This document shows positions 31,915-64,000 of a stretch of DNA of 64,000 bases, one piece after another (position 1 is the first letter of the stretch; the number at the start of each line of letters is the position of its first letter). The notes beneath the pieces were generated by a model. That model saw only the letters and a list, made by a program, of their open reading frames with translations. It did not search any database and was not told the DNA's origin. This DNA comes from Callorhinchus milii (lineage: Eukaryota): NCBI RefSeq assembly GCF_018977255.1, contig NW_024704742.1, positions 26,166,001 through 26,230,000 of the forward strand. The letters run 5' to 3'. The translations under genes and the position numbers were made by a program.

Positions 31915-34900
31915 AAGCGATTCCATTTCATTTTAATATAAAATGCATACATTATACAATATACAAATGTATCGAAATCATTTACATGTGACCAGCATAT
32001 AAAAATAACCTTACAATTTTATTAACAAGTAAATCAACAAGTTTAAGTAACTTTTTCCACGTTATTTGATAAACATCTTATAAATGTGTGATGTACAGCC
32101 ATTTAGTAAACATTGGTAACTACAATACGTGTATTTAATAATCTGTACATTGGAAATCTGGTGACAGACTTCTCTTACACTTCTATTGTTTAATAAAGTG
32201 CACATCTAAACTCTACTCCATTATGTTTCCTCCTTTTTTGCAAGGCATTTGCAGACTAAGAAAAAATGTTCACCACCGAGCCTTATAGAGAAACTCTATA
32301 ACAATCGATGATATCTAACTCAAGAAGATTTTGCTCTGGAGAGACAAAACCAAACCATTTTGGCTTGTGCAGAAACTAGTATTGGTATATTTGCTTCCTC
32401 TCTGCCCCCATAAGGCACTAAAGGATTTATAAAGTGTCAGAAACAAATTTAAAACCTAGTTGAATTGTGTGTGTAAGGATACCTGTTTTTGTCCCATTGG
32501 AAAAGAAATGAAGAAAAGATGTGGGTATTGTTTCTTGTAGGCTGGTATTTATGTAAATGGATTAAAGTTTAGATCTGCTGTTTGTCACAAGGCCACAGTA
32601 CAATATCAACGACTCATGCACTGCAGTTTTTTTTAAATCAACAAACATTACAAAGTTTCAGAAGAAAGGGAGTGCAAAGGGACTCTTCAATTGGATCCAT
32701 TTCCTCATTTGAGCAAAATTACTATGTCTCATGCAACAAAAAAAATCACTGAATGCTCTTGGATTATCCACAATATTGTTCAGTGAAAGCTCAAAGTTAC
32801 TGGCAAATTTATTTGTGAAATCAAATCACCCCCATCTACTTTACTAGTGATTAAATAGTACAGAGCATAACGCATATGCATCAACATTAACAGTGTTTAA
32901 CAGTATCGGCAGAAAGGGAATTGTGTCAATTGAGGGAAAACATCTGGTCTAAACCATTAGAGGCTCCTAATGTTAGTAGTACCACAACAAGAACCAAGCG
33001 AATCAAGGGACTGGGATGATATCAAATATTTCCAAGTTTAATAATTCACAGATTTTGGTATCGAGTACCTCGGAGAAGACGGAAGGAATAATGTTCTAAT
33101 ATTTTTAGGTAAGACTTTCACACTCAAGTAAGACCCACCAGTATTGGAGGCTTTACCCTCCAACCTTTACAGGATTGATAAATGCAGTAGCAACTAAAGG
33201 ACTGACCCCGTTGTGACCAATTCTCATTGTTTTGTGGGAAGCAAATTTCTGTCAAGAACAAATTTAGGAAGAATTACACTCCCACGACACCTCAAAAGTT
33301 GTCAGTGCAGTCTCTTTCTTTCTTCAAAAATAAATTCAAAGTATTTATTTTTCTTCTTCAGGTGCAATAGACAATGAAAAGTGCAAACAAGTAGTCTCAT
33401 CCTGTACACATGATATACAAATATAGAACAAAGAATAAATAAGCACTATTGCCTCCTGAATGAAGTCCTGAGATACACTTCAAAAGAAGTGAAATGTTAA
33501 ACAAATCTGCTTAGTGATAACTGCGCTAAGTTATTATTTTATTTTAAAAAAAGGCCCTTGACGTCAGTCACGCAGAAGACTAGTATCAGGATAGAGAGAT
33601 GTAAAGTAGCCCTGTGTCTCCTCTGCATGTACTGGCTTATTAAGTTCCGCACACATGCAACTATGATGAATGGTGTTTCGTGAATGAATTCAAGAGAAAG
33701 TCCCTTTGTTTGCTGTTTATCTGAGTCACAAATCAACATCCAAGACAATATTCTCACACATATAACCTATATTTGAATTCCCAATTTTTTTTTACAATTG
33801 ATGAACTGAATGCTGAGTTCCATTATTTCTGAGGAAATAAATGTTGTGCTGTTCTGTATCTATCTGCCTTGAGAAGACACAGACTAATGGCACCGCTGTA
33901 CAGCGCCACAAGCTCTGGTGAGAATTGCGATCCAGATTTTTTAGGTTTTCATTTTAGTTGCTAATAGTTACTTGTGCTGAGTTAAAGCTTTTTTCTGACC
34001 AAACATGGAAGAGAGCGCATAAAGAACATTGGATACAAACTTCAAAGACCTAGTAGAAAGGTCCCGGATATTGGCAAGGAATACAAAGCAGGAACCAAGA
34101 GGAAGGTAACATGAGAATTAAACACATATACCTTGTAACAAATTAAAGGCAAAGATTAATTCAAGGCTGTGGTTTTGCTGGGTGTTAGCACCAAATGGAA
34201 TTGGAGGATAAACTTCATTTGCAGATATTCTTAACCTGTATTCATAGAGCACGACCGTTTATTGTTCTAGCAGAGTTGTGGCTTTAACCAGCAGCATTGT
34301 ACATTTAGATCTTCTGCACAGCAAGCTTGCCCTTTCAATCAACCTACAAATATTTTCAGAAATAAAGAAAAGTACACAAGAAACCCAATTCAGTCTTCAC
34401 GTTACAACATTTAGGATACATCTTTACATATGTGTATATATCTATATATAGCTACATGTAATGACTCAGGATGGTAGATTAACATGCATTTATGCTGCTG
34501 AATCAATCATGACTTGCATTTATATAGCACTTTATAAGCAAAAGAACATTTTAAAGTACATGCCTTGTTGCATTATATGATCATAGGCACATAAGGAGTT
34601 ATCAAGAGTTCTCGTAGCTTTAACAAGTTGCATTGTACATTTAGATCGTCAGGATAGCAAGTATGTCCTTTTAATGTTTCAATTCTGCAAATATTTTCAG
34701 AGTCAGAAGATAATGGAAAGGGCCGTTTCAATGCCCGTCATGGTAAGTTGACACACAGTGCATTATGAGATATGGTGGGTGTCATCTCTAGTCATCATAC
34801 CAGAGATTTCAGTGTTGCACCACTTAAACAGATACTTGTGCAGTGGGGCTCAACGAAGATTGCACAACTAAATCAGCTGGTTCTACATAAATGACTTTTG

Positions 34901-35035
34901 TATTAAATCAAACCATTGCGTGCATACATTTTGCACAAAAATTGTAATATAGCTCAGGAAAGTAATTTTACCACATGAGTGAATTAACATATTACGATTT
35001 TAGATGAGAGTGATCAGACCTCAGCCTCACCTCTT
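31915..35035 (-). other. Probable 3' UTR of the RIMBP-like gene
   Basis: Nearly free of SINE/LINE copies, AT-rich, ends in minus-strand poly(A) hexamers. Confidence 0.5.
31932..32023 (-). terminator. Candidate polyadenylation signals (AATAAA at 32023-32018, ATTAAA at 31937-31932)
   Basis: Hexamers on minus strand; GT/T-rich tract (TTTCCTTGTTGCG...TTTTGTTT) downstream of the ATTAAA. Confidence 0.45.
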
Positions 35036-35149
35036 TCACACACGTTTCAGCAGCAGGCGTCTATTCACATTTTGATTGTGGAGATGTTCAGAGCAGCTGG
35101 AAATATTGGGTATCCCATGATGTCCTGGAGATGAACCCACTGACTTTGT
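35036..35149 (-). CDS. RIMBP-like probable terminal coding exon (TKSVGSSPGHHGIPNISSCSEHLHNQNVNRRLLLKRV*)
   Basis: Strong acceptor TTTTTCTCTTCCAG, phase 0, 37 codons then TGA at 35038-35036; followed by about 3 kb of repeat-poor AT-rich sequence; no homology support for the peptide. Confidence 0.6.
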   Translation of the reverse strand, partial: TKSVGSSPGHHGIPNISSCSEHLHNQNVNRRLLLKRV

Positions 35150-35599
35150 CTGGAAGAGAAAAATAATTTACCCAAAACCACGTCTATTAATTATTATTAT
35201 TAATAATAAGAATCCGTGCATTTGATATAGCACCTTATCAAGTTGTCAAGACACCTCAAAGTGTTTCACAGGATTTTGCTGTAATGTGTAGTGTGTTTGC
35301 GGTGACAAAAGTGGCAGCCAATTTGTTCATAGCAATGTCAAGTGCTCCGGGACACTACCCTGTGCGAAGGGGGCTATATAAATGCAAGTTGTTGCTGTCG
35401 TTGTCTCACAAACAGCTATCAAGCCATGGGGATTATTGGCCAGGACACCAGGAGAAACTTTTTTTGAATAGTGCTGCAGGAAATTTAAATCTACCTGAAC
35501 AAGCAGATGAGAACTCAGTTTAATGTCTCATCTGAAGGAAGGCAGCTCCAACAATGCAGTGCATCCCCAGGAGATTTGTGCAGCACCGAAAGACATTAT

Positions 35600-40073: not shown

Positions 40074-40157
40074 CACTTTTTGCTTTAATGTTTTTGGCAA
40101 TCCAATGTTGACTTCTTCAAGAAAGCTGACTGGTGCAAGACCTCGCCTCCCATTGAC
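40074..40157 (-). CDS. RIMBP-like exon, end of SH3-b (VNGRRGLAPVSFLEEVNIGLPKTLKQKV)
   Basis: 84 nt, TTTGCAG acceptor, GTG|GTAAGT donor; NG..GL.P..FLEEV matches the last RIMBP SH3. Confidence 0.88.
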
Positions 40158-44209: not shown

Positions 44210-44344
44210 CTCGGCCTCACAGAAACCATCTCTCCTTTGCTTTCCAAATGTCCAAACAATGTCCCCTTCTTTAAAGGCTAGTTCCTGACTAGGATGGATA
44301 TTGGGACTGTCTTGCAACGGGTGATAGTCATAAATTGCAAGGAA
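44210..44344 (-). CDS. RIMBP-like exon, SH3-b (FLAIYDYHPLQDSPNIHPSQELAFKEGDIVWTFGKQRRDGFCEAE)
   Basis: 135 nt, CTTTTCTAG acceptor, GAG|GTAAGC donor; ALYDY.P...SPN....EL.F..GD....DGF pattern typical of RIMBP SH3 domains; not in the ORF track. Confidence 0.9.
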
Positions 44345-47300
44345 CTAGAAAAGATAAACGGAAACAAAATACTCAGAATCAATACTAATTATCATGTGAT
44401 GTTATGGTTGTGGAGGTGTTGAGTATTTTAGAATATTTTCTGGATCACTAGCCAGACCTGGATATGGTTATTACATTTGTACATCATTGACAGTGGAATA
44501 TACAATAGCTTCCAAAAGCATATAAAGTACTTGTGCTTTGCAGGGCATATTGCAGATGAATCATAGGTTAAGTGTCCTAGCCTCTCACTAGACAAGTCAT
44601 TAACAGTTGCATTATTTTACATATTGGAGCATTTTAAGACTTTAGTAATTCCCTCAAGGTTTTCAAGATTTGCTCAGAGACCCTGAACAGATCTTGAAAA
44701 CCGTTGAAGATGTTACTTTAATATCTATAATAGGAATCTGAGCTGAGTTACAACAGATCGGCCTTGACACATCTTGGACTCACTAGTTAGGGTTCCTTTT
44801 GTGATTTAGACCTCGCTATTGCAATTGTCTTATTCACAAGGTTCCACCTCAAAGCTTTGGATTCAACCTTTCTAGATACGGCAATAATTGCATTGCTATT
44901 TGCTGTCTTCTAACTGTTTGTTTACACACATAATGTGGATTCCTTCATGTGCCCACTGGGCTGAAAGCAAAAACATATACTTCGAACAGGCGGTCAAAGT
45001 CAGGGCTCCACGAAGCAGCACCATTCATTGAATTATTTGAAAGTGTGAGGAGAAGGCACGACAGAGCAGTGGATAGAGTTGCAGTTTGTGTTCTAGGAGC
45101 TTGCTGGTTTGAATGCCAGTAGGTGCTGAGATTGCAGGTCTCAGCCAGTGCTGCAATAGGAGGTAAAATCAGCCCCAACCTTCCCAGGGGAGTGAGGGAG
45201 GGGGTCCTACTACTGGTCCCTCTTCAGAACCCTCTACTAGTTGTGTGTTTTGTGTAGTAGAGGTGAGAGAGGTCACTCTCTGCTGTGAAGCCCTGTACAG
45301 TTGAGTGGCCTGCTGACACTCACTGGCGTGGCTCACCTGTGAACACCAGTCACTTGGGCGGAGCGCAGGAGGGCAACCATGACCTGTGGAAATGCACCAA
45401 AGCAGGTCAGACCGGCATCAGAAAGGCATTTACAAGTGGGAAGGGAATTAGAAAAATAATTGGACACATTTATTTTAGATAAAAAAAGAAAACAATGGTA
45501 ATCTAAGAAGCAGGCAATATAGACAAGGAACAGCCAAACACTTATCTAGGGCAACTATTTCTAGGACATGCCTCTTATTCTACAGTTCTCCTTCAACATT
45601 AATAGATGTCAGTTTGATATATATATATATATTCAGCAACTCAGCCTGAATTAATAACGAGGCTGATCAGCTGAGTCAAGCTCTGTGATACGCAGCCTCC
45701 ATTCCTCAGGTTAGTCGATGTTCAGTAAGAGGCTGAAACCCCTTGGGTAGGTTATTATAACTAATTAAGAAATAGGAAGTAAAGCCAGTATCCTGCAGCT
45801 CAATGAGTTGGAAGTGTAATGCACAGTGCGATCAGCCTGTCAAGTATGGCCATTAAGAAGAACGTATTATAGGAATGGGGGAGGGGAAGAGCAGGTCGAG
45901 GTCTCTGTCTAACACCCAGAGACCATTCAGTTTGATAAATATCATAACGTTGCTCATTTCAACATCACAATTTTCACCACTTTTGTTTCTGTTCTTGTGG
46001 ACAAACTAATTTCATTTTTATACCATTTTAAATTAAGCCGCATTGGCAAGTTGCACAGTCTGCTCTGAGACCCTACCCCTGAGTGGAAGGCGTTAGCTAC
46101 ATAAGTGCAAGTCGTTGTTGTTGCTCTCCACTGTGTTGCACAGTCTGCTTTATGTTTGAAAGTGTGGCAGTAGAACAATCCGAGGACATCAGCAGCAACA
46201 ACAAATTACATTACATTTTACATCAGCACAAAACTCAGTGCTCTGTGTCAATCTGTACTGCAGGTAGTGAAAGATATTACTTGAAGGTTACAATGAACCA
46301 TGAAACTCCGTCTGTTGGAACCATTTTCAGAAACAAAAAGTAATTTATTTACCTGCTCTGTTCATGTGAATGAATCAACTTTGTTTTAAAGACCATTTAT
46401 TTCTAAGTTTCAAAGAGCAGTATGAAGATACGGCTGAATCCTTGCTCCCAAAACACCCCAAATATCAACCGAGTGTGACTGTCAATCATCCTCGCTTGTT
46501 CAGGTTAAAAAAGATTAACTCTTCAATTATCAATATGGATCACCGTGGCAAAAATCACATGACTTTCCCCAAGGGAGATAGCTCGGCCACAAACACCAGC
46601 ATAAAAAGGAATAAAAACACAAATGCAGGACATCTACAGCAGGTCAGTTTACAGCACAGAAAGGAGCCACTCAGGCAGATGTGTCAATGCAGTTGCTAGC
46701 TGACTTCCTAACTGGAGCGATTTGCTCTCATCCTTGTTCACCCCTCGCCCCTCTATTTCCTTGTAACCTTTAAAAGGGGGCATAATCTTACAAGGGGACA
46801 TAATTACAATCGTACAAGGGGCCATAATCTTAAAATAAGAGCTTGGCCATTTAAGGAGTGGAATCAGAAAGCATGTGTTCATGCAAAGGGTAGTAGAGAT
46901 CTGGAACTCTCTTCCCCAAGACTGAGGTGAATAGATTTCTTTTTAGGTCACGGTATCAAGGGATATGGGGCGGGTAATTGAAGTTGAGTTACAAATCAGC
47001 CATAATCTTATAGAATGGTGGGACAGTCTCGAGAGGCTGAATGGCTTATCCCTGTTCCACAAACTGTTTTTCTTCAACAGTCATTTATGGTGAGGCTTTC
47101 CACATTGTAAGAACCCACTGTCACAATGCACTTTTTCAGTCCCATTATGTTAGTTGTGCTGAAGAGGACCATGGAACCATATAAATTTATAGCACAGAAG
47201 AAGGCCATTTGGCCCATCGCATCTGTGCTGGTTCTTTGAAAAGCACTATTAAGGTGTAGAGACTTAATAGGTTTCAGTCTGATGAACCTCGATCAACACT

Positions 47301-47455
47301 CATGAAATTTCTCAACAAAATAAAATGATTCTGGTAAAATACAGAGTGTCAAAAGGTGGGTATAGTGGAACTTATTAAGTTGATTTGCAAAGAGTTTTTG
47401 GCAATTAGGTGCACCATTTCCAAGAGTTGTAATGGTTAGCAACATAAGAGCATAA

Positions 47456-47765
47456 GAGTCCCGTAGCTCAGTGGTTAGAGCGCTTGCTTTGCACGCAAGA
47501 GACCTGGGTTCGATTTCCACAGGGTGAAACCTTGGCAAGTTTCCTTACTCCATGTGCCTGATAATAATCCCTCAAGAAAAAATAAACAATAATAAATTGG
47601 TCACTTCAATCCATGACTGTTTGTGGGACACTGTTGTGCGCAATTGGCTGCCGCATTTCGCCCACAAATATAGTCAATTCACTTTACAGTCTATTCTGCA
47701 AAGTGCTTTGAGACGTCTAGAAGATGTGGAAAGCGCTATATCGAATGCAATAATTATTATTATTC
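47456..47765 (+). mobile_element. tRNA-derived SINE
   Basis: A/B boxes and family tail. Confidence 0.88.
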
Positions 47766-47864
47766 TAATTCACCTTCCACCTTCCTGGTGGTTGTATGTC
47801 CCGAACGACCTATGTACTACATCCCATAATGTTATTTCCTAAAAGAAAACTATGTAACTTCCTG

Positions 47865-48548
47865 CTTCAACCCCTTCCCCACATCCGGTCCCTGACCAGA
47901 CCGCCTTCATCCACCTCTGCCACATTGCTCACCTACGACCGTACCTTACCCCAAATGCAGCAGAAACCCTTGTGCAAGCATTTGTCACCATCCACCTGGA
48001 TTACCCAAACGCACTCCTTGCCGGTCTTCCCAGCTCCACTATTCAAAAAATCCAGCTCATTCAGAATTCTGCTACCCGCATACTTACCTGGACCAAACTC
48101 TGTACCCCGATCTCACCAGTTCTGGCCAGTCTCCACTGGCTCCCCATCACCAAACCGATGGACTTCAAGATCCTCACTCTCGTGTTCAAATCCTTTCACT
48201 CCCTGGCACCTGCCTACCTCTCTGACTTCCTCACTGCCCAATCCACCACAAAGCACCCCCGCTCGACTGGCACCGGCCTCCTGCTTGTCCTTCGCGACCT
48301 CCAACAGAAGTCACACATTCAGCCACTAAGCCCCAAAACACTGGAACACTTGCCCTCAATCCCTCTGCATTGCCCCCTCTCCTTTTTCAAGTCCTCTCCC
48401 CTTTTTCAAGTCCCCCCTGAAAACCTTCCTTTTCGACCGTGCTTACGGTCATCTCCCCCCTCCCCGGCTCAGAGTCAGGCTCCACCACTGTTAAGCGCTC
48501 TGAGATGCTACCCTGCGTGGAGGGCACTATATAAGTGAAGCTTTTGTT
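47865..48548 (+). mobile_element. L2 3' fragment
   Basis: AFVT..LDY.NALLAGLP...IQNSA.R.LT; L2 tail. Confidence 0.88.
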
Positions 48549-49814
48549 GTCTCCCTAGGGAGCCTGTTCCACAGGAATTTACACCCCTGCAATCGCAAGT
48601 TGTGTCCTCTGGTTTTACTATTCTGGCCTAGTTGAAACAGCCAGTCATGATCTACATTGTCTAGACCCATTAGAATCTTAAAAACAGCAATCATATTACC
48701 TCTCAATCTTCTCAACAGTATTAACAATTTGAAACAGATTTCTCCCTATAATACACCATATTGCAAGAGTGTGCTGGCCCAAATTCTGCCACTGCAAATC
48801 ATGTCCCACCTGGTCTCTGTGGAAATAACAAACTTGCATCCAGCTAAGCTCCCACTGTTATGTCTTGCACTATTGCACATGTAAACAATATTTCCAAACT
48901 TTATACTCTTAATAATCAGGTTAGGTGCACTGGGGTTTACAATATATCCCAGCAAACTTTAAAACTCTCCCTATTTACACTGTCTACATCTTGTACCAGA
49001 GTAAAGAATGCTTAGGTTCTGTAACTGACACCTGAAGCCTCCATCTAATGACTGTGGAAAATCAGCTTTCAGATTAAGGCTGTATATAAAAATGTTCTAA
49101 AATTCTGCCCAATCTTGAATGTAAATTTTAAAACAATGGCTAAGGCTGGGACACCTCCCCTTCCCCTCTCCATCACCTGGTGTCCAACCTGTTCTTGTCA
49201 AGTGCTTCGAGACATTACCCTGTGCAAAGGGCACTATGCAAATGAAAGTTTTTGTTGCTGTTTTTGTAGCTCTGATCAGTAATAAATCACATCTTTTTAT
49301 ATCTGAACAAGTAATAGAGCGTGTGCTTGAAACATGGCACTGTTGCAGTTACAAAAATTCTATAAAACAAAAAGAACTTGTAAAGCCCCTATCAAAACAA
49401 CTTACATTTATATGGCAGCTTTCACACAAAGAGCACTTATAGTCCTATGATGGGTAAAGGTCTTCAAGCTCTTAACAGTAATTACTAGTATATACAGTGA
49501 CGTTTTTTGTGAATAATTCTGTAGCCATTTTACTCACAGCAAAGTTCTCAGACCTGAGGTGAATGCCTACTTATTTTAGTGACAAGCACACCAGGAGAAA
49601 CTCCCTTAGAGATGCTCTATAAATCCTAGTAACTAATTTAGGTTGACTTACCATTCTTGCTTTAGGATTACGTGTCGACAAGAAGGAGCAATCCTGAGAT
49701 GATTTGATTTCCTAAATTGAAAAAAGGAAATAAAGTAATTATAATCCTTGATTTGGTAAAGCAGCTTTCATGTTGGAAGGATGCCTCAAGGCACTTCACA
49801 GGACACAACAGTGT

Positions 49815-51541: not shown

Positions 51542-51730
51542 CTGAAATTTCTCAGAGCAGTCACTGGGGTGACTGGCTGGTGAAAGACAGGACAGTTCAG
51601 ACAAAGCCTTCTTTTGTGGTTGGCAGTTCTGAAAGAGGACAGTAACCTTCCCAGACACCAGACCATTGGTTCCGACTGTCTGAACACTGACTTGAAATGG
51701 TACAGTCAGGTCAAGATCTTCCAGCACAGT
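51542..51730 (-). CDS. RIMBP-like exon, FN3 C-half and linker (TVLEDLDLTVPFQVSVQTVGTNGLVSGKVTVLFQ...SEKFQ)
   Basis: 189 nt, AACAG acceptor, CAG|GTATGT donor, phase 0/0; L..L....(Y/F).VSVQ....G..S FN3 strand F/G pattern. Confidence 0.83.
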
Positions 51731-52929
51731 CTGTTATTAACACATGGAAGAAAACAGATCACAGAATTGATGGATGAAACAGAATATGGAATAAACAATA
51801 ACTTACATTTTTATTGTACCCCTTCACGCGTGGATTGGATTGCTTCAAAACATATCGAAGCATCATTGAGGGAGCACTGGGCTGTATTTTTCTTGCCAGG
51901 ATTGATGACCTTGGTGCTAAGGCAACACAAATCCTTGACCGTCCATCAACCAATCTGGTCTGTATCTGCAGCAGTGATTCAGCATTCACTTGTCAAGATT
52001 AAATGGCTGGGTCCCTTGACACTGATTTCATTACTCAAATGAAAAGATAATGCAGATGGGGTTGGGAAAGTAATTGGCAAACCCAAATGCATGTCATTTT
52101 CCCATAAAAGGAGATGTCATGGCAAGACGTGATCGATATCCTGTAACAATTTACCCTGGAAAAAAATGAAAACCTGACTGTGTGGTTTGATGTTCAGAGC
52201 TCGACAATATATCCACATGGTCAGAACCACAGATCAAACATCCAAAACAGAAAGGAATCTTACCCGTCACATTAAACTATTACAGATCATCAAACCTCTT
52301 CAATGATTAAAATGAAGTGAATAATAACATGAAATGCACAAGGTGAAAAGGTCGGCATGTGCAGTGATAATTACTGTACAGGCTCCTGTTGATGTCCCAG
52401 TGCCCTGGGGGGAAACACTGCCCGTGCTTTTTTGGGAGCGTTTGCTTCTGAATTCCCTTTGCTGGTGCTGTAGTCCTTCTTTGAGAGAATAGCACCTTTG
52501 AACCTGCCACCAAGGTGGAGCACAGCAGTTCAGGGAATTCCAGTTAAACTCAATCTTAAAAGTGACAATTGTCACATCACATTCTGTATTTTAACCCAAT
52601 GAAGACCATCATCGTGGTTTAGCTACACTTTAGTAAAATCTTCTGTAAATATTCAAGGCAGGAATTAATTTGCCTTTTACCCTGCTCACTTGCTTCAAAG
52701 ACATCAAGCTTATTGAGCCCTAGTCTCTAATTAAATTTGCGTGCTAACCTAACAAAGGGATATATGAAAAGAAGTTTAATCACATCCCTATGGGAGATGC
52801 AGGAAACTCATCTTGTAGCTTACAAGATCACAGCATTAATAAATTAATCACAGCTACCGGAGCTTGGATACTCTTTAGCAAGAAGCAGAACTATACTTTG
52901 TTTGTTATAATGCTTATATTTTCTGCAGG

Positions 52930-53330
52930 ACACTGGGGATCATCTTCATTGCTCTCTACACTGATTCCAGGGCCTTGGCGGCTCCCTTATGTCGAGCCAC
53001 CAGAACTACAGGCACTACACAAGATGTGGCCTGACCACAGCACTATACAGCTTGAGTACGACATTTGGGGATCTGAACTCAACTGATTTAGCAATGTAGT
53101 GCAGCATTCTGTTTGCCTCATTTATTGCTGTCTCACACTGTTTTGACATGGTGAGCGATGAATCAATTAATACCCCTATATCTCTTTCAGCTTCCCCCTT
53201 GGCAAGTTCTATCCCATACATGGAGTACACATTTTTAATTCCTATCTGTAGTGCCTTGCAGTTATCTGTATTGAACTTTGATCAGTCATCAGTCCATGTG
53301 CATACTTTACCAAGCTCTCTGTATCAATCT
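52930..53330 (-). mobile_element. CR1-like fragment
   Basis: ERDIGVLIDSSLTMSKQC..A..ANRML.YI......LYSAVVRPHL. Confidence 0.8.
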
Positions 53331-53834
53331 GCCTGATGCGGCCTGATGTATTAGATAATATATTATTAAAAATCAGTAATAAAGAACAAAAGTACTTTCA
53401 TTATTATAGTGTCTGAAATATCTGCAAGCGTGTCACAGATAATCATTGCCAAGTTTAGTGATTCTTTTTGTAGGGAAATGCAGCAATCATTTTGCCTAAA
53501 CAGCCATGAAGCATATGATAAATTAATCTGGAGGATTATTGGCTATAACACAGGGAGAAACTATTTTCTTTTTAAAGATTACAGAATCTTTAACATTCAT
53601 CTTTAACATTCACTGTGGTTTAGGGTCTCATCCAAGAGATGACAGATCTAACACTGCAGAGCTCTCCCAGCACTGTACTGGAGCATTAACCCACACTATG
53701 AGTTCAAGACTCGTTGTGGGGCTCGAACCAACAACATTTTGACCCAGAGATGAGAGTGAGCCAGGCTGACAATGAACACTGTTGTTGTCAACATTGTATC
53801 AAACAGAATAAAAATGAATGACAAAGCTCAGGTA

Positions 53835-54535
53835 ATAAATCTAGGAGTCCAGTTCGACCCCCAACTGTCCTTCCTCCCCCACATCTGGTCCCTGACCAGC
53901 AACCCTTTCTTCCACCTCCGCCACATTGCCCGCCTCCGACCGTACCTTACCCCAAATGCAGGCGAAGCCCTCGTGCATGCGATTGTCCACTCCTGCTTGG
54001 ATTACTCCAATGCACTTCTCATCGGTCTCCCCAGCTCCATTATTTACAAGATCCAGATCATTCAAAACTCTGCCGCCCACATACTGATTCCTGACCAAAC
54101 TCCGTATCCACATCTCACCAGTTCTGGCCAGGCTCCACACTGCTCCCCATCACCGAATGGATCGACTTCAAGATCCTCATACTTGTGTTCAAATCCCTTC
54201 ACCCCTGGCACCTCCCTACCTCTCCTCACTCCACCACCCGGCACCTCCGCTCGACTGGCTCCGGCCTCCTTCTCGTCCCTCGCATCAGCCCCACCATTGA
54301 GGTCATGCTTTCAGCCACTACTCTCCAAAACTCTGGAACATTTTCCCTCAATCCCTCTGCCTTGCCCCCCCCCTCCCCTTTTTCAAGGCCCACCTGAAGG
54401 CTTTCCTGTTCGACTGTGCTTACTGCCATCTCCCCCACTCCCACCCCTCGGCTCGGAGTCAGGCTCCGCCATTGTTAAGCGCTCTGAGATGCTACCCTGC
54501 ATGGAGGGTGCTATATAAGTGCAAGTTGTTGTTGT
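53835..54535 (+). mobile_element. L2 3' fragment
   Basis: NLGVQFDPQLSF..HI...LDYSNALL.GLP; (TTG)n tail. Confidence 0.88.
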
Positions 54536-55079
54536 AAATAATCCTTACATTTGATAGCGTCTAATGCTTATTTTATATAAAACCCTTTTATTATAGTTGC
54601 ATTTCTATTTTATATCAAGGTTGCTTTTGAAATGTTCCCTTTTTGCTCTACTTCTAGGAATTTACTCTGATTTTTTCCAATTGTTTATATTTTTGCAGAA
54701 ATCCATCACCATGCTTAAGAGTTTCCAAAACAGACTGAGAATTCGAGATATATATGCCGCCTACACATGCAAATGCTCTTATTTTTAACAACCCAACCTT
54801 CCCCTGAAATTTTAATGACTGCTGCTCAGGCAACTAGAACTTACAGATTTACTGAGCCATATGCTGTATCATTGAATATTTTAACACAGGGGTTAAGATT
54901 CCAAAAGACAGGACTTTCAAAAACAATTTTCTCATCATTTAATAGAATTACAAAGAATGGACAACATTCTAACCTCTTATAAACTAAAGATGTTTTGGGG
55001 AGAATCTACGAAATTAAACTTTGAGTCTAATCAAAAGAGAATATTTTCTCAAAGAGTGTTATGTACTTTAATTCCTTAC

Positions 55080-55133
55080 CTTTGTGCAATCTGATCCCAT
55101 CACCGACTTGTGAAATTCGCCATCAATGAATAT
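55080..55133 (-). CDS. RIMBP-like small exon, FN3 middle (IFIDGEFHKSVMGSDCTK)
   Basis: 54 nt, TTGTTAG acceptor, AAG|GTAAGG donor, phase 0/0; continues GYR|IFIDG. Confidence 0.82.
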
Positions 55134-55630
55134 CTAACAAGTAAAATAAATTGAGTAAAAAAGATAATCCTTGCATTTGGTGCAGTACCTTTATCAGATC
55201 TTCCAGAGAATACAATAGAAATTTACAGAAACATCTAAGATCTTAATATTTGTACTGGTATCACTATCTAATCTATCTTCTGGAGGTTTATCTAGAGGTT
55301 TACCCAGAGGTGTGACCCCATCACCCCCACCTCGCCTGACTCCACTGGCTCCCCATCACTCAGAGGATCAAGTTCAAAATTCCTGTCCTCACCTTCAAGA
55401 CACTCACTTTCTTGCCCCCTTCTACCTCTCCAACCTGCTAACCCCTTATCAACCTGTCTGAACAACATGATAAGGCGCTATATCGAATTTAAGGATTATT
55501 ATTAATGTCTCTTTTTTTGTAAATGAGTATATGTTAGATAATACTATGAAACAGATTATTGTTTACATTAAAGCTAAAAAATTCCATGTTCAGTTGGTCG
55601 CAAACTGTTAGTCACCAGTCTATAACATAC

Positions 55631-55761
55631 CCTATAGCCTTGGACAGACGTATGATTGCTGGATCCCTTTTCATCCGTACCAGGCTTCTCCCAGTTAACC
55701 ACCAGGTTGCTCTGGCCGACTGGTTTTATAATCCGGACTGAGACAACTGGTGCAGGGGGCT
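55631..55761 (-). CDS. RIMBP-like exon, FN3 N-half (EPPAPVVSVRIIKPVGQSNLVVNWEKPGTDEKGSSNHTSVQGYR)
   Basis: 131 nt, TTTCTCCAG acceptor, AGG|GTATGT donor, phase 1/0; FN3 pattern P.AP...V.W..P....V.GY. Confidence 0.86.
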
Positions 55762-56489
55762 CTGGAGAAAGGAACACAATAATTAATGTAAATTATAAAT
55801 AAGGCAAAAAGCATTCAAAAGGACAGAAATGTCCCTGTGCTCATTTATCTTGCAGATGTCAGGGAAATAGCTCTGAATTGTTTGTCTCTGGAGACAAACA
55901 GGAGTTTGGTTTGCATTAAGCAACTATGTTTATGGGATTTGTTATGTGAGGTGACCAACCCACACTTATCTAAAGTAAGCCCTTTGCCCTACTTTTGTAA
56001 GGAGCCCAGTGAAAAAAAAGTGAGGGTCTATTACTAAATGTTTCTTGCCCTGGCCTGTTGTAGCATACCGTTACACAAGGATTACTGATCGTATTAAACC
56101 CAGAATCCACGACAATGCATTACCAGCTCATTTTATTCCGCCTGCCACTATATTTTATCGGCCACCCTTAAGTATTCATTACTTTAAGCCAATTTTGATC
56201 ACAGACTGGAATTGAAGATTTGCTTAAGGCTACAGCATTTATTTATAACCACAAATCTTACAGTTTAAGAAACAGCATTTTGGGTTAGTCCGTGTCAGAA
56301 TTAAGAGATTCATTGATGGGTGGATAAAATGATCACGGTTTTAACAACATGTAGAAAGAGGACATTTGCTCAGGAAATCAATGTGGTCTATCTGATAGTC
56401 AATGCTGAAAAGTATTAGACAATTATCATGACGCTCTAACATTTTTGTGACCTAAATAGAAGTTAACCCCAAACTGAAAAGATTAACTG

Positions 56490-56810
56490 GGAGTCCTGTA
56501 GCTCAGCGGTTAGAGCACTCGCTTTGCAAGTGAGAGACCGGAGTTTAATTCCAGGCAGAGGGCGAAACCTTGGGCAAGTTTCCTTACTCCACACAGAGCC
56601 TAATAATAATCCCTCCAAAAAACCAAAAACAATAATAAATTGGTCATTTTCAATCTACGACTGTTTGTGGGACATTGCTGTGCGCAATTGGCTGCCGCGT
56701 TCGCCCACAAATATACAGTCAATTCACTTTACGGTGTGTTCTGTGAAGCGCTTTGGGACGTCCTCCCAACGTGAAAAGCGCTATATCAAATGCAAGGATT
56801 ATTATTATTA
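56490..56810 (+). mobile_element. tRNA-derived SINE, young short subfamily
   Basis: GGAGTCCTGTAGCTCAGCGG head to (ATT)n tail. Confidence 0.9.
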
Positions 56811-57394
56811 AAATGGCAGAGATCGGATTGCACAGGCCCAGAAAAGACATATACCATAAAGACCCATAGATGTAAGCTGTATCCCTTTAGCCATACACCC
56901 CAAGATCTGATGAATAAGAGATTAAATGATGTTCTTTATTTGAAGATTTCTGAGTTTCTTTCCTCAATTTACTTATTAATATAAATGAGTGCTCAATTAA
57001 AAATTACTCTTTAATAACAAGTGACTATTGTGCTCATGTTCTTCACCTTTATGCACATAATATCAACTTGCTAACACTTTGATGAAAGTTCTGCTGGATT
57101 TGATAAGTGCTGGTAAGTATTAAAACTATTTTGCTCTGAGCTGTGCTGGAACATCTGTTTTATCAGATAATCCCAAACCTCCGTCTCCCTGAAAATTAGT
57201 TTTCACTCGACATTGATTTGAAAGCATTTACTTTCTGAGATGGGGATGATTACACTGCCAGGTTACTGAGCAACCGTTACATATGACAATTAAAGACATC
57301 TTTTTTATATAGCCAGGGAGAACCTAGATGAAGGGCCAAGGCCCATAGTACAGGACATCACCAAGGGTAGAAATATAGTGCTTAACTTTGTAAC

Positions 57395-57765
57395 ATTTCA
57401 AAGCACTTCACAGGGAATTGCTGTAAATTGTGTTTTGGTATGTTATGGCAGCAGCCAATTTGCCCACAACAATGTGCCACAGATAATTATTAAGTGAATG
57501 ACCATCTGAAGGATTGTTGACCAGGACACTGGGAAAAACTTCTCTTTTTGAATAGTATCATGGGATTTTTAACAATCACCGAAACAGATGGCTAGGATCT
57601 CAAGTATACTGAGATTTCATCTGAAGAACATCTCCTCTAACATTGTAATGCTCCTCCAGCACTGGAATATCAGCCTAGACCATGAACTCAATGTCCCCAT
57701 GTGGGGCTTGAACCCACAACCTTTGGAGCCAGAAGTGAAAGTGCTACCAACTAAGCCAATTGGCA
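57395..57765 (-). mobile_element. Degraded DeuSINE-like element
   Basis: Reverse match including head GGGGCTTGAACCCACAACC. Confidence 0.65.
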
Positions 57766-58765: not shown

Positions 58766-59089
58766 ACTTTTGGCTCAGGACTTCAATTGTCGAATATTGA
58801 ATCGTGATATGTTTTGACAACATGATTACGTGCTATCAAAATGTTTCATTATTTTATCTAACTGACCAGGGACAAACTGACTAAAGCTTTAACAGATGTA
58901 ATTGTGTCACATAGTGTAGGACAATATTAAAATAAGAGAGCACAGACAAAAAGCTGTTGTTTTGAAAGTTAATCATTGTAATTGTGATTATCAAGTTACT
59001 GCGTTGAGAAAAAAGACATTTAGAAGAAAGAAATCACCATCTTTGTTTACAATTATATCTGACAAATATCATTGGAATTGTTAATTTAC

Positions 59090-59492
59090 CTTGTGCCATT
59101 GTTGGTCCTCTTACTCCCTGCATAGCAGTTGCTGCTGTCCACCGTTCATGGTCTTCTCTGAGATTTAGTGTCAACATATCTGATAGATTGCATCCTGCTG
59201 CTATTAGTTGGCATGTCTCACTAGTATTTCCCCCGGATCCCTGTGTGCTTTTTGGGTCATCCGCACCACAGTCTCCTGAGCAACACTGAGCAGGGTCAGC
59301 AGACTGGAGTGAGTGGTGTTGCTCCTGCTTCTCTCCTGCAGTTTGCCAGCGAGTCTCACTAATTGAACATTCCAGTTCATTGTGTAGCCTTGATACCAAA
59401 GGGCGCTGCACATGTTCTTGATTTGGTGAGGAAATAGACACTGAACTGGGATCCATTGCTGAGAATGACCCAGTGGTCACAGAAGGGGTTAC
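59090..59492 (-). CDS. RIMBP-like exon, Ser/Thr/Gln-rich linker ([17 protein letters not shown]...GVRGPTMAQ)
   Basis: 403 nt open frame, CTCTCTACAG acceptor, G|GTAAAT donor; phase 0/1 fits both neighbours. Confidence 0.78.
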
Positions 59493-59542
59493 CTGTAGAG
59501 AGAAGAATGAATTGGGTGAAGTTTGCAATCTTTTTAAGCATT

Positions 59543-59816
59543 TTAATAATCCTTGCATTTGATATAGGACCTTATCATGTCTTCGAGACGTCTCAAAGCG
59601 CTTCACAGAATGTATTGTAAAGTGAATTGAGTGCATATTTTGTGGGCGAAACGTGGCAGCCAATTGCGTACAGCAGTGTTCCACAAACAGTTGTGGATTG
59701 AGTGACCAATTTATTATTATTATATTTGTTTGAACGAATTATTACCCCCGGAAAAGCGATCCCCCAATTGACTAACAACCGAGGCAAGTGCTCCAACCAC
59801 TCAGCTACAGGACTCC
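59543..59816 (-). mobile_element. tRNA-derived SINE (internally deleted long subfamily)
   Basis: Family head and tail on minus strand. Confidence 0.85.
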
Positions 59817-61074
59817 ACCAATTTTGTTGCTTAACACCAGCGAGTGGTTAAAAAAAGTCACAAGTATTACCCCATTTTTCTTAAGGCAACTAAAAAGAAA
59901 GTTTCCAAAAGCTCTTTAACAAGGTGTTAGATAAAATAAATAAGCATTATAGGTAAGTAATAAATAATCCTAGCATTTGATATCAACCTTTCACGTTGGG
60001 AGGACATCTCAAAGCACTTCACAGAATTTATTGAAAAGTTTAGTGACTGTAAATGTAAATGTAGATGAAATCAGCAGTCAATTTGAACACAGCGATATCC
60101 CACAAAGAGACATGGAATGAGTGACCAATTTTATTTGGGGAATTGTTGGCCATGACACCAGAAGAAAACACCTTTCTCTTTTCAAGTAAAGATCTGGAAT
60201 CTTTTGTAACATCCATCTGATAGACAGCTAGATTATTATGTATCTAGAGACAATGTAATGATGTCCATATTGACTATAATTGTCTATAATATTAGAATCA
60301 TCCATTTATTCAGTTGGGTCTGACATTTCAGCGAGGCCATTTGAGAATATGGAAAGTGATCCTATTTTAAAACATTGTAATGACGTTTCTTCAGCAAGGA
60401 ATGGAGCGTTTAGGGGAATACTGCAATTTCAAAATGTTTAAAGACGGCCCAGGGTGTGAAACGCCTCCTGATTCTTTACAATGGTTGTCCCAAAGATTTC
60501 AACAGCTGGTAGTTGTTTTTGATTGCAGTGGTTTAGTGCAGCTTCTTGGGATTCCATACTCAAAGACTGCCTCTGAGTTGGGAACAGTAGTTGGGGGCAT
60601 TAAGCAGAAATCCAAGATTGTGAAAAGCAGTGATGTATTTAAGAGAAAATTTGATGTATACATGAGGGAGAAAGGAATAGATTTGGGGAACAGGAGTGAT
60701 TGAGGGGAGTGGGGAATATAAATCCAGGCACAGACTAGTTGGGTAGAATGGCTTGTTTCTTTAACGTATGATTCCATGTGTTTCACAAATATTGCAAATG
60801 TAGCACTCGAATCCCTAAAATCCAGCTCCCAGAACCTCCATTGTTGGGGTGGGGGGGTGGGGGAGTTACATCTGCCGACACTCCTTAGATGTCCTTAGAC
60901 AGATGGAAGAAAAGGATTGTTCAACATATAATTAATTGTCACATTGAATTTGTTATGAAACATTACATTTTTCAACTTTTTAAAACAAAAGTGATATGTT
61001 TATTATTTTTTAATCAAAGTAAGCCGATTTCACATGCAATAGTTTGAGCAGATTTTAGTTATGGTGTAGTTTAC

Positions 61075-61317
61075 CTGGTAGTTACTGCTATGTCCCTGCT
61101 GAAGCTGTTGGTAGAACGCTAGGATCCTTTCTGGGCTACTCAGCTGTGCATTCAGAGTAGACTTGCTCTGAGGTGTGTGTGCACGATGGACATCATCTGC
61201 CTCATCCAGAAAGCTGGCTGGAACCAGCCCCAATACCGCATTCACTTCAGCGTGGTACAATCCATGGCTATCTGGGAACCCGGTGACTCGGACCACATCT
61301 CCAACAGAGAGAGGCAA
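61075..61317 (-). CDS. RIMBP-like exon, rest of SH3-a (LPLSVGDVVRVTGFPDSHGLYHAEVNAVLGLVPASFLDE...SSNYQ)
   Basis: 243 nt, TATCAG acceptor, CAG|GTAAAC donor, phase 0/0; SH3 GLVP..F motif. Confidence 0.87.
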
Positions 61318-62890
61318 CTGATAAAACAATACAACAAGGAACAAAACTGCAATATCAAAGCATGTTCAATGTTAGAAACAAGTTTCATCAAAGGAAACCA
61401 TCTGTACGTTCACCTTATTATTCTGTAAGGTGGCCAAGGGCTTTCTTCATCGAATATTGATGAAGACCCTGTGGGCCTAGCACACCAGTGCTCCAATGCA
61501 CCTTGCAATTGAGAGATAGGACGAGGGTTCCCAATACAGTGAGTAAATGGTCCAGCTCTAGTAAGACAACAATAAGTAGACTCATCCCAAGCCACTCTCA
61601 TGCACTTTCCACAGCACTGACAAGTGGTCTGGCATCAAATGACTGCCCATCCGATGGGCTAGGGGTGATGAACAGTAGAGAAAAATGGAAAGGGACAGAA
61701 CAACAAGTCTCCTAACATTTTATAAACACTGAATTAAATCATCTCAAATTAATCATAGACAAATGTATTGCATGGTGTGACAGCAGAAAATGTGAAATCT
61801 GGATATATAGAAAATTCTTTGCTAATCCTCTTTGATGACCTTTCACATCAGCGTAGGAGTCAAGACTATTCCCGCCCATTATTCAACTCAATCTGAATCA
61901 GTGGCACCTGAGCCCTGGTTATGATCAATTTTCCATAATTCTGTTGCAATCTTCAATTTTAAGACAAAATGGTTCTACGAGCTAAGACTGGGTGGAATTG
62001 CAGGCTTTGGGTTTAATCATGCACATCAGTCAGGTCTAAAGGGATTCACTCACAACTCGCCAACCTGATTTAATTTAATTTAATTGTCAGAGAGAACACC
62101 ATCAGTATCTGGGCTGGATTTCAATCCAAATCTCAGGAGGGTAAGGCCAGCCATTTAGAGATTGCATCTCTCAGCCCTCTGAGTATAGAAACATTTCAAA
62201 AATATTACAAGATAAACCTGTAATAGGTCAGCCACCTGTGTTTCACAAGTGTTACTGCATGGATTAGATCGAATGACAGTGACAAAGAATAAAGGTCAGA
62301 GGGCTGAATTCACTCATGGTTTTAAGACTAGTAATCTAGAATTTAAGGTATGCAGAGTTTTGAAATTTCATATATTTAGACACAATTTGGAAGCTATTTT
62401 TCTACAGTTGGAACAGTAGAAAAGCAGTTTTCTACAAAACGCACAGCCACCGCACATTACAGTAAATCATTTGAAGTGTTTTTAGATGTCCTCCCAAAGG
62501 AAAAGGTGCTACATCAAATGCAAGGATTATTATTAATAATCTATTAAGAGTGAATTTAAGAATATTCCAAAATGTTGCACGATCTTAAGCTTTAAGACAA
62601 TGGTCTTTTCAGGCCCTGGTTGTTTGCACACTGACAAACTCTGCTCTCTAGACAGAATTTGTCACACAATAACATGCTTTCCCAACCATTGGTATCAACC
62701 AGAACAATGACTAGTAGTATCACTGGTTAGCTCAGTTGGTAAACGCATCACTAATATAAAACCAAGCCACACAGATCCTTAGCAGTGCTCTGAGATGCTA
62801 TCTTGTGTGAATGGTGCTATATAAAAGCAAGCTGTTGTTGTTGTTGAGCATCCCAGATTTAATCCCCATTCTATGAAGGACAGGACTAAC

Positions 62891-63232
62891 ATAATAATAA
62901 TCCTTGCATTTGATATAGTGCCTTATTATGCCTTCGAGACGACTCAAAGCCTTTCGCAGAATATACTGTAAAGTGAATTAACTGTATATTTTATGGGCGA
63001 AACACGGCAGCCAATTGCGCACAGCAGTGTCCCACAAAACCTTGTGGATTGAGTGATCAAAATTTTTTTAAGGGACTATTACCACGGAAAAGCGATCCAC
63101 CAATCATACTGCTAGGTAAACAGAGGTGTGTGGAGTAAGAAAGCTTTCCCAACGTTTCGCTTTGCCTGGGAATCGAACCCAGATCCTCTCGCTTGCTAGG
63201 CGAATGTGCTAACCACTATGCGAAAGGATTCC
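62891..63232 (-). mobile_element. tRNA-derived SINE, long subfamily
   Basis: B box GGTTCGATTCCC and family tail on minus strand. Confidence 0.85.
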
Positions 63233-63257
63233 ACTTCAACTTCAAAAGATCACTCAC

Positions 63258-63400
63258 AGCAGGCAGGACTGTGTGGGGCATGTTCTCAGAAGGGTGGTAG
63301 TCAGCATTGGCTACACATGACCTGTAGATTAAAGATGGACTGGAATCCACAATGTTTCCCCTTTGACTGGAAAGAGAGTCCAGAAGACCAGGATGCAAAC
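63258..63400 (-). CDS. RIMBP-like gene, first exon visible in window; start of SH3-a (LHPGLLDSLSSQRGNIVDSSPSLIYRSCVANADYHPSENMPHTVLPA)
   Basis: 143 nt, TTTTAG acceptor (phase 1), GCT|GTGAGT donor (phase 0); CVANADYHP joins LPLSVGD of the next exon, resembling RIMBP SH3-1 (CVARYSYNP...ELPLTAG). Confidence 0.78.
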
Positions 63401-64000
63401 CTAAAATTAAACAGGTCATCAATTTTTGAAATATACACCAAGTGAAAAATGCAAGATATGATAATTATCATCAAATCACCAATACTAATAGGCAATAATT
63501 GTCACAAGGATACAGAAATGCAGTCATTTTTCCCCACTCTCTGAAACTCCATCCCAGAATCCCTCCAACTGTCCTTTCAGTTACCTTTCTCTACCCTCAG
63601 CTCAGGCTCTCCATTAGCTGTGTGAAACCCTTTGAGGTATCCTCCCGACGTGAACATATACATTTATTGTTCTTGTTCTTATAAATCTGTCATTAATAGC
63701 AACTTTTGGACTGAACACTTTCTTTTCCACATCATTTGTAGGATAGCTTCACATTCCCACGCTTTCAGAATTTTTAATACATTTTTTTTCATCTAAAGCC
63801 ATTTTTCCTGGCCCAGTGCAGCATTTGAACTTTTAAAATGAATGTGTAAATTCTTTTTGAGACTGTACATGGGTGAAATAAGTTTGAATCGTTATGTTCT
63901 TAGCCCCACTATAAAATAAACTGAAAGATCAGTAAAAAGCCTGAGGAAGAAACCCTTCTCCCTACGTTTTGTGGGTGCTCAGGCCCAAATTTGTCATTAA

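Follow-up and report, generated by a model that had tools for sequence, protein, structure and literature searches.

A Callorhinchus milii C4orf50 orthologue with an SH3-FN3-SH3 tail, the probable tail end of an ancestral JAKMIP gene

A 64,000-nucleotide stretch of Callorhinchus milii DNA (contig NW_024704742.1, positions 26,166,001 to 26,230,000; hereafter the window, with position 1 as its first letter) contains a gene next to CRMP1 that encodes an SH3-FN3-SH3 module resembling that of RIM-binding proteins (RIMBPs). This raises the question of its counterpart in human, where we take the gene order to be EVC – CRMP1 – C4orf50 – JAKMIP1 – WFS1, with CRMP1, C4orf50 and JAKMIP1 co-oriented. An earlier note on this DNA offered two answers: C4orf50 descends from a RIMBP-like gene that lost its SH3/FN3 C-terminus in mammals, or a separate RIMBP-like gene was lost from this slot. 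We find that the window contains the ten 3'-most exons of the C. milii C4orf50 orthologue, and propose, with a probability of roughly 0.85, that this gene is the tail end of an ancestral eumetazoan JAKMIP gene whose locus was split in vertebrates and whose tail was eroded. The interpretation we favour is that JAKMIP1 and C4orf50 each represent half of a single ancestral gene.

The gene comprises ten minus-strand exons, from 63400 to 35036, which are flanked by canonical AG/GT sites and join into a single in-frame open frame of 517 codons. Eight of the ten match shark orthologues (tblastn, E ≤ 1e-3), and exon-exact splice joins are present in RNA-type contigs; the RNA nature of these contigs is a guess, and only exon-exact joins were used as evidence of splicing. 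Exon A (63258..63400) encodes the end of the linker following the DUF4527 core and the first half of the first SH3 domain, SH3a (tblastn to shark orthologues, E 7e-12; AG/GT). An exon beyond the window splices into exon A at 63400, and contigs extend 314 nt (contig X5 record 29) and ~3.8 kb on its 5' side. Exon B (61075..61317; Pfam; RNA-type contig) encodes the second half of SH3a and the SPxRI helix, which is the last part of Pfam DUF4527; contig X1 record 7 splices it to exon C. It matches SH3_2 (E 4e-4) and PF15030 (E 7.9e-6; its 25.9 bits fall short of the 29-bit cut-off, and most of the domain lies outside the window). Exon C (59090..59492; tblastn to Heptranchias, E 1.5e-19; RNA-type contig) is a low-complexity linker, a region with low pLDDT in the model of the bowfin orthologue. 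The FN3 domain (Ig_RIMBP2) is distributed over exon D (first part, 55631..55761; PF25523 E 2.4e-8; a contig piece stops at 55631), the 54-nt exon E (middle part, 55080..55133; sharing 17 of 18 residues with sawshark; AG/GT) and exon F (last part and spacer, 51542..51730; tblastn E 1e-16; contigs X2 record 8 and X5 record 23). The 60-nt spacer exon G (49652..49711) was first spotted via a gap in the contigs: two of them leave 59–60 nt between F and H, and exon G, the best in-frame AG..GT candidate, is assigned to this gap by its length; it is probably skippable. Another spacer-exon candidate, near 45382, was discarded as it is 47 nt long and out of phase. The second SH3 domain, SH3b, is encoded by exon H (first part, 44210..44344; tblastn E 1e-22; contigs) and exon I (last part, 40074..40157; tblastn E 4.5e-9; AG/GT). 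Exon J (35036..35149; tblastn E 1.7e-9 to the Heptranchias C-terminus; splice sites) is the last coding exon and carries the stop codon (35038-35036). A putative 3' UTR on the same strand (31915..35035), with a predicted end, contains the signals AATAAA (32023) and ATTAAA (31937), and length accounting for contig X1 record 7 indicates coverage to ~32,680.

CRMP1 lies downstream, also on the minus strand, which bears out the co-orientation given in the earlier note. Its long-isoform first coding exon (26016..26390, minus strand), presumably exon 1A, has its ATG at 26390 and a donor after 26016. For two further minus-strand exons the top PDB match is CRMP1 by a narrow margin: CRMP4 is a close second at 7313..7402, and at 2799..2987 the values are E 1.1e-26 for CRMP1 and 7e-26 for CRMP4. 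In alignments, three residues agree with CRMP1 against CRMP4. A motif search found no first exon of the short isoform. The ~5.5 kb spacing proposed earlier between the gene end and CRMP1 exon 1A holds when counted from 31915, a position 17 nt beyond ATTAAA (31937-31932) and 5,525 nt from the long-isoform ATG, so that the figure depends on a putative poly(A) site; between the stop codon and this ATG the distance is 8,646 nt.

Exon B has four database matches, including a sawshark "C4orf50-like" protein (67% identity). Three of the four exceed the Pfam cut-off for DUF4527, and the closest full-length orthologues score 101–189 bits for PF15030. SH3 and Ig_RIMBP2 domains are present in proteins from skate and gar that bear the name "C4orf50 homolog", and relatives from shark, gar and sturgeon contain DUF4527 and SH3-FN3-SH3 in one chain. 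A 50-row tree, with rows including gorilla, possum and gharial, follows the species tree with no deep duplication: the window groups with elasmobranchs (97/91), ray-finned fish form a group (97/94), as do tetrapods including gorilla (100/99), and all belong to one clade (100/99). Only the SPxRI columns are common to the window and the placental rows, which are linked via intermediate rows. C4orf50 orthologues are 1,800–2,970 aa long, with a long rod that we infer to be a coiled coil, and with the order DUF4527 core – SH3a – SPxRI helix – linker – FN3 – SH3b. Gene models fuse a C4orf50-type protein to CRMP1 in sturgeon, and C4orf50 to JAKMIP1 in turtle, hamster, sheep and squirrel. The C. milii gene resembles C4orf50/Gm1043 (PF15030) in its putative DUF4527 tail with the SPxRI helix, its place in one orthologous clade and its adjacency to CRMP1, but it has an intact SH3a and continues for ~390 residues (linker, FN3, SH3b), features that placentals lack. 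Names and Pfam tags in databases already implied that the shark proteins are orthologous to C4orf50.

How, then, is the family related to RIMBPs? In common with RIMBP2, TSPOAP1, RIMBP3 and fly RBP, it has RIMBP-type SH3 domains with an SPN insert and an Ig_RIMBP2 FN3 domain, and RIMBP2 and fly RIM-BP domains are its closest solved structures: domains of the bowfin orthologue match 2csi (E 6e-12) and 2csp (E 4e-5) in the PDB, and Foldseek aligned the bowfin model, in which the domain folds are confident, with 4z88 (rmsd 0.9). RIMBPs contain three SH3 domains together with two to three FN3 domains (PMC7565545), whereas the window and full-length C4orf50 orthologues encode two SH3 domains and one FN3; neither a second FN3 nor RIMB1_N was reported in the 4 + 1 fish proteins scanned. 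The C4orf50 family also differs from RIMBPs in its DUF4527 core, in the replacement of ligand-binding acidic residues and in forming a separate clade. A domain tree of 220 columns places RIMBPs apart from C4orf50 plus amphioxus (100/100), and an AU test rejects the grouping of C4orf50 with putative vertebrate RIMBPs (p=2.4e-5). In these analyses the C4orf50 family was already set apart from RIMBPs before the bilaterian radiation. A JAKMIP N-terminal profile detects 10 of 60 RIMBPs, in each case at the N-terminus; since long RIMBPs carry the JAKMIP N-terminus, the JAKMIP and RIMBP families are probably sisters. The sea urchin "Rimbpb" was considered a divergent Rimbp duplicate and excluded from the tree in Coppola et al. 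2020 (PMC7565545); by eye, its supplement sequence fits the rows for the echinoderm giants at FN3 and SH3b. The main text of that paper mentions neither JAKMIP nor C4orf50.

In all 22 family rows, SH3b has Arg at a site that is Asp in 19 of 19 RIMBPs, and the RT-loop Asp is kept in none of the 22. At the RT-loop and n-Src sites, the nine vertebrate rows uniformly have His and Arg, where each of the 19 RIMBPs has Asp at both. The RT-loop Asp of fly RIM-BP, placed on the SH3b alignment by our own column mapping, is described as binding a ligand Arg (PMC4536467). With two acidic positions changed, SH3b is predicted not to bind RIM or calcium-channel PxxP ligands in the manner of RIMBPs.

Invertebrate relatives of C4orf50 start with a complete JAKMIP, the protein type known in vertebrates as JAKMIP1/2/3 (Marlin-1, NECC1, NECC2). 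Passages of PMC2685396 and PMC12732012 present the vertebrate JAKMIPs as coiled-coil proteins of ~73 kDa upward and make no mention of SH3 or FN3 domains. The invertebrate proteins are all predicted gene models: in 10 of 13 taxa (7 phyla), at least one isoform has both a JAKMIP N-terminus and an SH3-FN3-SH3 tail, and the models of the other three taxa miss the JAKMIP part. Giants with a JAKMIP head and a C4orf50-type tail measure 2,500–4,400 aa. JAKMIP_CC3 was above cut-off in 9 of 16 scanned proteins, each also containing Ig_RIMBP2 and SH3. A DUF4527-core profile gave 44–60 bits in nine of 16 invertebrate proteins, 20–23 in three and no match in four, including a coral protein with an unexpected tree position; in controls, the best score was 4 bits among 35 RIMBPs, with no matches in 16 reversed decoys. 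The tail module of the long invertebrate JAKMIPs falls in the same clade as the C4orf50 orthologues, with the DUF4527 core upstream where detected; they differ in having JAKMIP_CC3, which is absent from full-length chondrichthyan orthologues and from the C4orf50 family, distinguishing the latter from JAKMIP1/2/3. Hamster JAKMIP1 residues 31-799 align with residues 31-803 of an amphioxus protein (E 4e-95), and the N-terminal block of C4orf50 aligns to amphioxus residues 816-939 (25 bits), a weak match that also occurs in other places, probably due to a repeated motif; the two matches adjoin, in order. The amphioxus "JAKMIP3" is sister to vertebrate C4orf50 in the domain tree (97/94). Most of the rod fails to align from vertebrates to invertebrates, with matches from only 7 of 18 blocks, four of them at the C-terminal end. 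We propose that the ancestral eumetazoan JAKMIP gene would have encoded JAKMIP head, rod and SH3-FN3-SH3 in one chain, that in jawed vertebrates the locus would have become JAKMIP1 followed by C4orf50, and that the C4orf50 tail would then have been eroded stepwise until it was absent in placentals.

A fourth vertebrate RIMBP paralogue beside C4orf50, lost in mammals, would agree with the nearest solved structures and with the name "RIMB2" given to the bowfin orthologue. The presence of DUF4527 and SH3-FN3-SH3 on one chain in sharks, sturgeon and gar, the AU test, and the single FN3 with no RIMB1_N reported in the fish proteins scanned make this explanation, in essence the second answer of the earlier note, extremely improbable. 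The idea that C4orf50 itself descends from a RIMBP-like gene is retained in so far as the orthologue has the SH3-FN3-SH3 tail, and is revised as to the ancestor, which would be the C-terminal half of an invertebrate-type JAKMIP giant, from a sister family of RIMBP. We also consider it unlikely that JAKMIP and a C4orf50-like gene have been separate neighbours throughout, with the giants as annotation joins. Vertebrate predictors do fuse JAKMIP, C4orf50 and CRMP1 neighbours, the giants are all predicted, and three of the 13 taxa have models without the JAKMIP part; however, the join is seen repeatedly, in 7 phyla, in models by different submitters and often in several isoforms, the amphioxus matches abut in order, and a single chain with the same head-to-tail layout is found in long RIMBPs.

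It is possible, if doubtful, that fission was incomplete, such that JAKMIP1 and C4orf50 form one transcription unit, with C4orf50 as an internal-promoter isoform and a full-length in-frame protein in some tissues. NCBI labels C4orf50-type proteins from two turtles, one bat and two fish as JAKMIP1 isoforms, which suggests shared exons; fused JAKMIP1-C4orf50 models account for 1/55 and 4/120 among the proteins listed; and at invertebrate loci full-length isoforms are annotated next to internal-start ones, with tail-less isoforms also known in invertebrate annotation. The top co-expressed transcript of human C4orf50 is described as JAKMIP1 (r=0.642), with an exocytosis signature (PMC13657826), although this co-expression may reflect overlapping annotation. 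On the other hand, JAKMIP_CC3 was found in none of five scanned "JAKMIP1 isoform" proteins, the listed chondrichthyan proteins all lack PF16034, and no match to JAKMIP1 occurs within the first 780 aa of the Heptranchias isoform. Tetrapod and shark C4orf50 proteins have a common start segment of their own, and the fused vertebrate models may be prediction joins.

The split of one ancestral gene into JAKMIP1 and C4orf50 leaves the fate of the tail, which was tallied on annotated proteins rather than genomes (birds and amphibians with 2 rows each). That the SH3/FN3 C-terminus was lost in mammals is correct for placentals, with neither domain in any of 118 placental-set proteins, but not as the timing of the loss: FN3 is kept in marsupial proteins (6/6), the last SH3 is already absent from sampled tetrapods, and percomorph fish lost both SH3s separately. 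In turtles and crocodilians the first SH3 is still present and decaying. Placental C4orf50 stops at a median of 29 residues past the SPxRI start (≤40 in 53 of 55). Profile-profile comparison for an SH3 relic gave a probability of 98.5 in crocodilians (two of six reptile rows passed extraction), 2.4 in birds, 0.2 in marsupials and 0.3 in placentals; the last two values demonstrate no mammalian relic, and faint in-register residues are only suggestive of an SH3 trace. The annotated sequences indicate that the tail was eroded in several steps rather than in one mammalian event.

The JAKMIP1 N-terminus is reported to bind microtubules and kinesin-1 (PMC2685396). We tentatively suggest that the ancestral protein could have tethered microtubules or kinesin-1, through its JAKMIP head, to secretory or Golgi-derived cargo at its FN3/SH3 end, with C4orf50 as the cargo-side half co-expressed with JAKMIP1. 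More speculatively, JAKMIP and RIMBP might constitute one superfamily of microtubule-to-release-site tethers with a common N-terminal head and an SH3/FN3 tail; JAKMIP1-C4orf50 would be the only vertebrate copy with both halves, and neurons or neuroendocrine cells of some vertebrates, possibly humans among them, might still make a giant in-frame isoform from this locus or a complex of JAKMIP1 with C4orf50.

On the proposed history, the origin of the human orphan gene C4orf50 and the fate of its domains become traceable, the gene acquires a testable partner in the microtubule- and kinesin-binding neuronal protein JAKMIP1, and the JAKMIPs, vertebrate-only in the cited literature, are recast as truncated heirs of a ~4,000-residue protein. 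Animals would have a second RIMBP-like family, with an altered SH3 pocket, that was overlooked by a phylogenetic survey (PMC7565545). The long N-terminus of TSPOAP1 and RIMBP3 is predicted to be a microtubule-binding head of the JAKMIP type; this would be in keeping with the role at microtubules that has been reported for RIMBP3 in sperm (PMC7565545).

The minus strand of the window carries ten coding exons, A to J, all with AG/GT sites: A (63400-63258), B (61317-61075), C (59492-59090), D (55761-55631), E (55133-55080), F (51730-51542), G (49711-49652), H (44344-44210), I (40157-40074) and J (35149-35036). Joined, they give 517 codons with one stop. Among 43 reading frames scanned, exon B matches DUF4527 (E 7.9e-6, below the cut-off) and SH3, and exon D matches Ig_RIMBP2; the FN3 domain is encoded by exons D, E and F. 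Splicing was judged from exon-exact joins in contigs of the sequencing runs X1, X2 and X5, which are only presumed to be RNA: the junction of exons B and C is exact in a 7,738-nt X1 contig, and exons F and H are joined in X2 and X5 contigs across a 59-60 nt insert, which by its length fits the 60-nt spacer exon G. Since the X1 contig holds 3,968 nt 5' of exon B, about 3.8 kb of transcript would lie upstream of the window. A segment equivalent to exon G is absent from a Heptranchias isoform, and the exon is therefore probably alternatively spliced.

CRMP1 follows on the same strand, in agreement with the earlier note. The gene end proposed there (31915) is consistent with a distal poly(A) signal that lies 5,525 nt from the ATG of CRMP1; the X1 contig, however, extends only to ~32,680 by length accounting. 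A motif search of the 18.6 kb CRMP1 intron (7403-26015) did not find the short-isoform first exon, which may be divergent. Around the first coding exon of CRMP1 (25350-28000), the DNA is GC- and CpG-rich, with long low-complexity blocks on both sides that give long spurious reading frames. Very high-copy interspersed repeats, probably SINE-like, occupy 47400-48100, 56050-57400, 59370-60040 and 62690-63360 (summed contig depth up to ~3e5), and reverse-transcriptase-like fragments occur in several introns.

Four proteins among 72 candidates were retrieved with exon B: a sawshark 'C4orf50-like' protein (67%), two from sturgeons and one from bowfin. The sawshark DUF4527 region as query recovered 55 proteins, from sharks to hamster, and a hamster query 140 (best 120 of 140 listed). 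In a 50-row tree, where placental and bird rows fill <40% of columns, chondrichthyans, tetrapods and ray-finned fish form one clade (100/99), a deep duplication is absent, and the window sequence groups with sharks and rays as their sister (97/91), a position that points to a holocephalan. Gene models are fused to CRMP1 in sturgeon and to JAKMIP1 in turtle, hamster, sheep and squirrel, so that both neighbours are seen beside C4orf50 in other species. We conclude that the window gene is almost certainly the orthologue of C4orf50 and still has a complete SH3-FN3-SH3 tail (SH3a, FN3, SH3b). Some shark and gar proteins are already named 'C4orf50 homolog' in databases, with SH3 and FN3 tagged.

Profiles from 18 fish orthologues, with isoforms counted as rows, give the following tallies for the DUF4527 core, SH3a, FN3 and SH3b, respectively: chondrichthyans 16/16, 16/16, 15/16 and 14/16; non-teleost and basal teleost fish 15/16, 16/16, 15/16 and 14/16; named percomorphs 20/20, 0/20, 19/20 and 0/20; amphibians 1/2, 0/2, 2/2 and 0/2; turtles and crocodilians 10/10, 4/10 (with an additional weak SH3a in gharial), 9/10 and 0/10; birds 2/2, 0/2, 0/2 and 0/2; and marsupials 6/6, 0/6, 6/6 and 0/6. 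In the placental set, which includes some unnamed rows, these profiles find the core in 110/118 and SH3 or FN3 in 0/118. FN3 is the longest-retained part of the tail. Vertebrate SH3a has lost the Trp-site aromatic in 9/9 rows and the Glu in 8/9, which fits its early decay. Both anchor motifs are present in 55 rows of the placental set; 53 of these have their C-terminus within 40 residues of the SPxRI helix and 43 have Val at the position of the window's exon-B GT donor; we infer that the placental end arose by read-through of this donor into a stop. A Chinese sturgeon model (P0003, Acipenser sinensis) has two tandem copies of the core, which probably reflect a duplication made during assembly or annotation.

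Genes are known to split and to lose domains. With the bowfin tail as query, all 1.84 billion representatives were scanned and 565 matched; the best 150 of 565 include, beside RIMBPs, proteins of 2,000-4,300 aa with a single FN3 and SH3 at the C-terminus, from coral, amphioxus ('JAKMIP3'), hemichordates, echinoderms, molluscs, a brachiopod and an annelid. All these giants are predicted proteins. JAKMIP_CC3 exceeds the Pfam cut-off in 9/16 scanned, and a JAKMIP1 profile shows the JAKMIP head in one chain with the tail in 10/13 invertebrate taxa, the head being absent from the models of Antedon, Diadema and Bulinus. In 12/16 invertebrate proteins (9 strong, 3 weak) the core precedes the tail; the same profile search gave zero signal in 35 RIMBPs and 16 decoys. 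The amphioxus protein matches JAKMIP1 at residues 31-803 and, weakly, the C4orf50 N-block at 816-939, followed by the core (3261-3313), SPxRI (3429), FN3 (3648) and SH3 (3779). Head-less internal-start isoforms are also annotated at starfish, scallop and abalone loci, and tail-less isoforms at the latter two, so the pieces for a split pre-existed. Three points count against a JAKMIP-C4orf50 ancestry: the greater part of the rod cannot be aligned, the coral row is misplaced in the domain tree described below, and all giants are predictions. The rod is a putative coiled coil, as suggested by source names and weak Pfam matches. We nevertheless consider it likely (roughly 0.85) that C4orf50 represents the C-terminal half of a giant JAKMIP protein that was ancestrally one chain.

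Several features vary among these proteins. SH3a is present in molluscs, brachiopod, annelid, coral and fish and absent from amphioxus, hemichordate and echinoderm giants (P0216, P0243, P0267, P0275, P0282, P0302), a patchiness that implies repeated independent losses. An LxxLExSExxL-type motif occurs in the rod 1-3 times in 6/6 C4orf50 proteins and 2-15 times in 9/10 invertebrate giants, with 0/6 in RIMBPs and none in reversed controls. In unnamed short proteins and the coral giant (together P0190, P0194, P0196 and P0187), a C4orf50-type FN3 is accompanied by three to five SH3 domains, an arrangement that may be the non-bilaterian form. A mosquito JAKMIP_CC3 protein is mentioned in the available text of PMC13043729.

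The earlier note had offered two readings: C4orf50 descends from a RIMBP-like gene that lost its SH3/FN3 part in mammals, or a RIMBP-like gene was lost from this position. The second is not supported. Descent with loss is borne out by the orthology tree and the placental tally, but the loss was stepwise, and a RIMBP proper as ancestor is contradicted by a tree of SH3a, FN3 and SH3b (41 rows, 220 columns), in which amphioxus is the sister of C4orf50 (97/94) and 19 RIMBP rows stand separate (100/100), with the coral row misplaced. Forcing C4orf50 with 10 putative vertebrate RIMBP rows, a group picked after the tree was known and with only 2/10 rows named, costs 58 log units (p-AU 2.4e-5). Our results indicate instead a JAKMIP-derived ancestry, which had not been suspected. 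Among the matches listed, in a full-text search mostly outside subscription journals, no paper deals with the domains of C4orf50, a fusion of JAKMIP with C4orf50 or homology between JAKMIP and RIMBP. The FN3 N-half (exons within 51542-55761 and aligned relatives) is nearer the last RIMBP FN3 (29% vs 21.5%) and the C-half nearer the first (28.6% vs 21%), as if the single FN3 were older than the RIMBP FN3 duplications. In the accessible part of a Rimbp survey (PMC7565545), the vertebrate classes are Rimbp2 and Rimbp3 only and a sea urchin 'Rimbpb' is set aside; judged by eye, the latter belongs to the C4orf50/giant-JAKMIP tail family, and the supplement could hold further members.

In an AlphaFold model of the bowfin tail, SH3a, FN3 and SH3b are confident, the linkers between them are disordered and the SPxRI helix is of low confidence; the nearest solved domains are those of RIMBP2 and fly RIM-BP. 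In fly RIM-BP, the RT-loop Asp forms a salt bridge with the ligand Arg (PMC4536467, available text). SH3b retains the groove Glu and Phe, whereas, by our own count of the corresponding columns, His, Tyr, Asn or Val replaces this Asp and Arg replaces the n-Src Asp in 22/22 rows, and a ligand class different from the RIM-BP type is therefore predicted. JAKMIP1 binds microtubules and kinesin-1 through its N-terminus (PMC2685396 and PMC12732012, parts available), which suggests that the ancestral giant most likely linked microtubules to secretory cargo as a long tether, with C4orf50 as its cargo-side half; we put this forward tentatively. In the accessible part of PMC13657826, human C4orf50 in tumours co-varies most with JAKMIP1, and also with exocytosis genes.

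A JAKMIP N-terminal profile, whose matches may be affected by coiled-coil bias, hits 10/60 RIMBP-type proteins (31-109 bits; two named TSPOAP1), always beginning within the first 49 residues (P0206 and P0212 included), and 0/60 reversed decoys and 0/20 C4orf50 proteins. With this shared N-terminus in long RIMBPs, the JAKMIP-C4orf50 and RIMBP families appear to be sisters with a common head and tail, and the JAKMIP-like N-terminus of long RIMBP/TSPOAP1 proteins may account for the reported microtubule role of RIMBP3.
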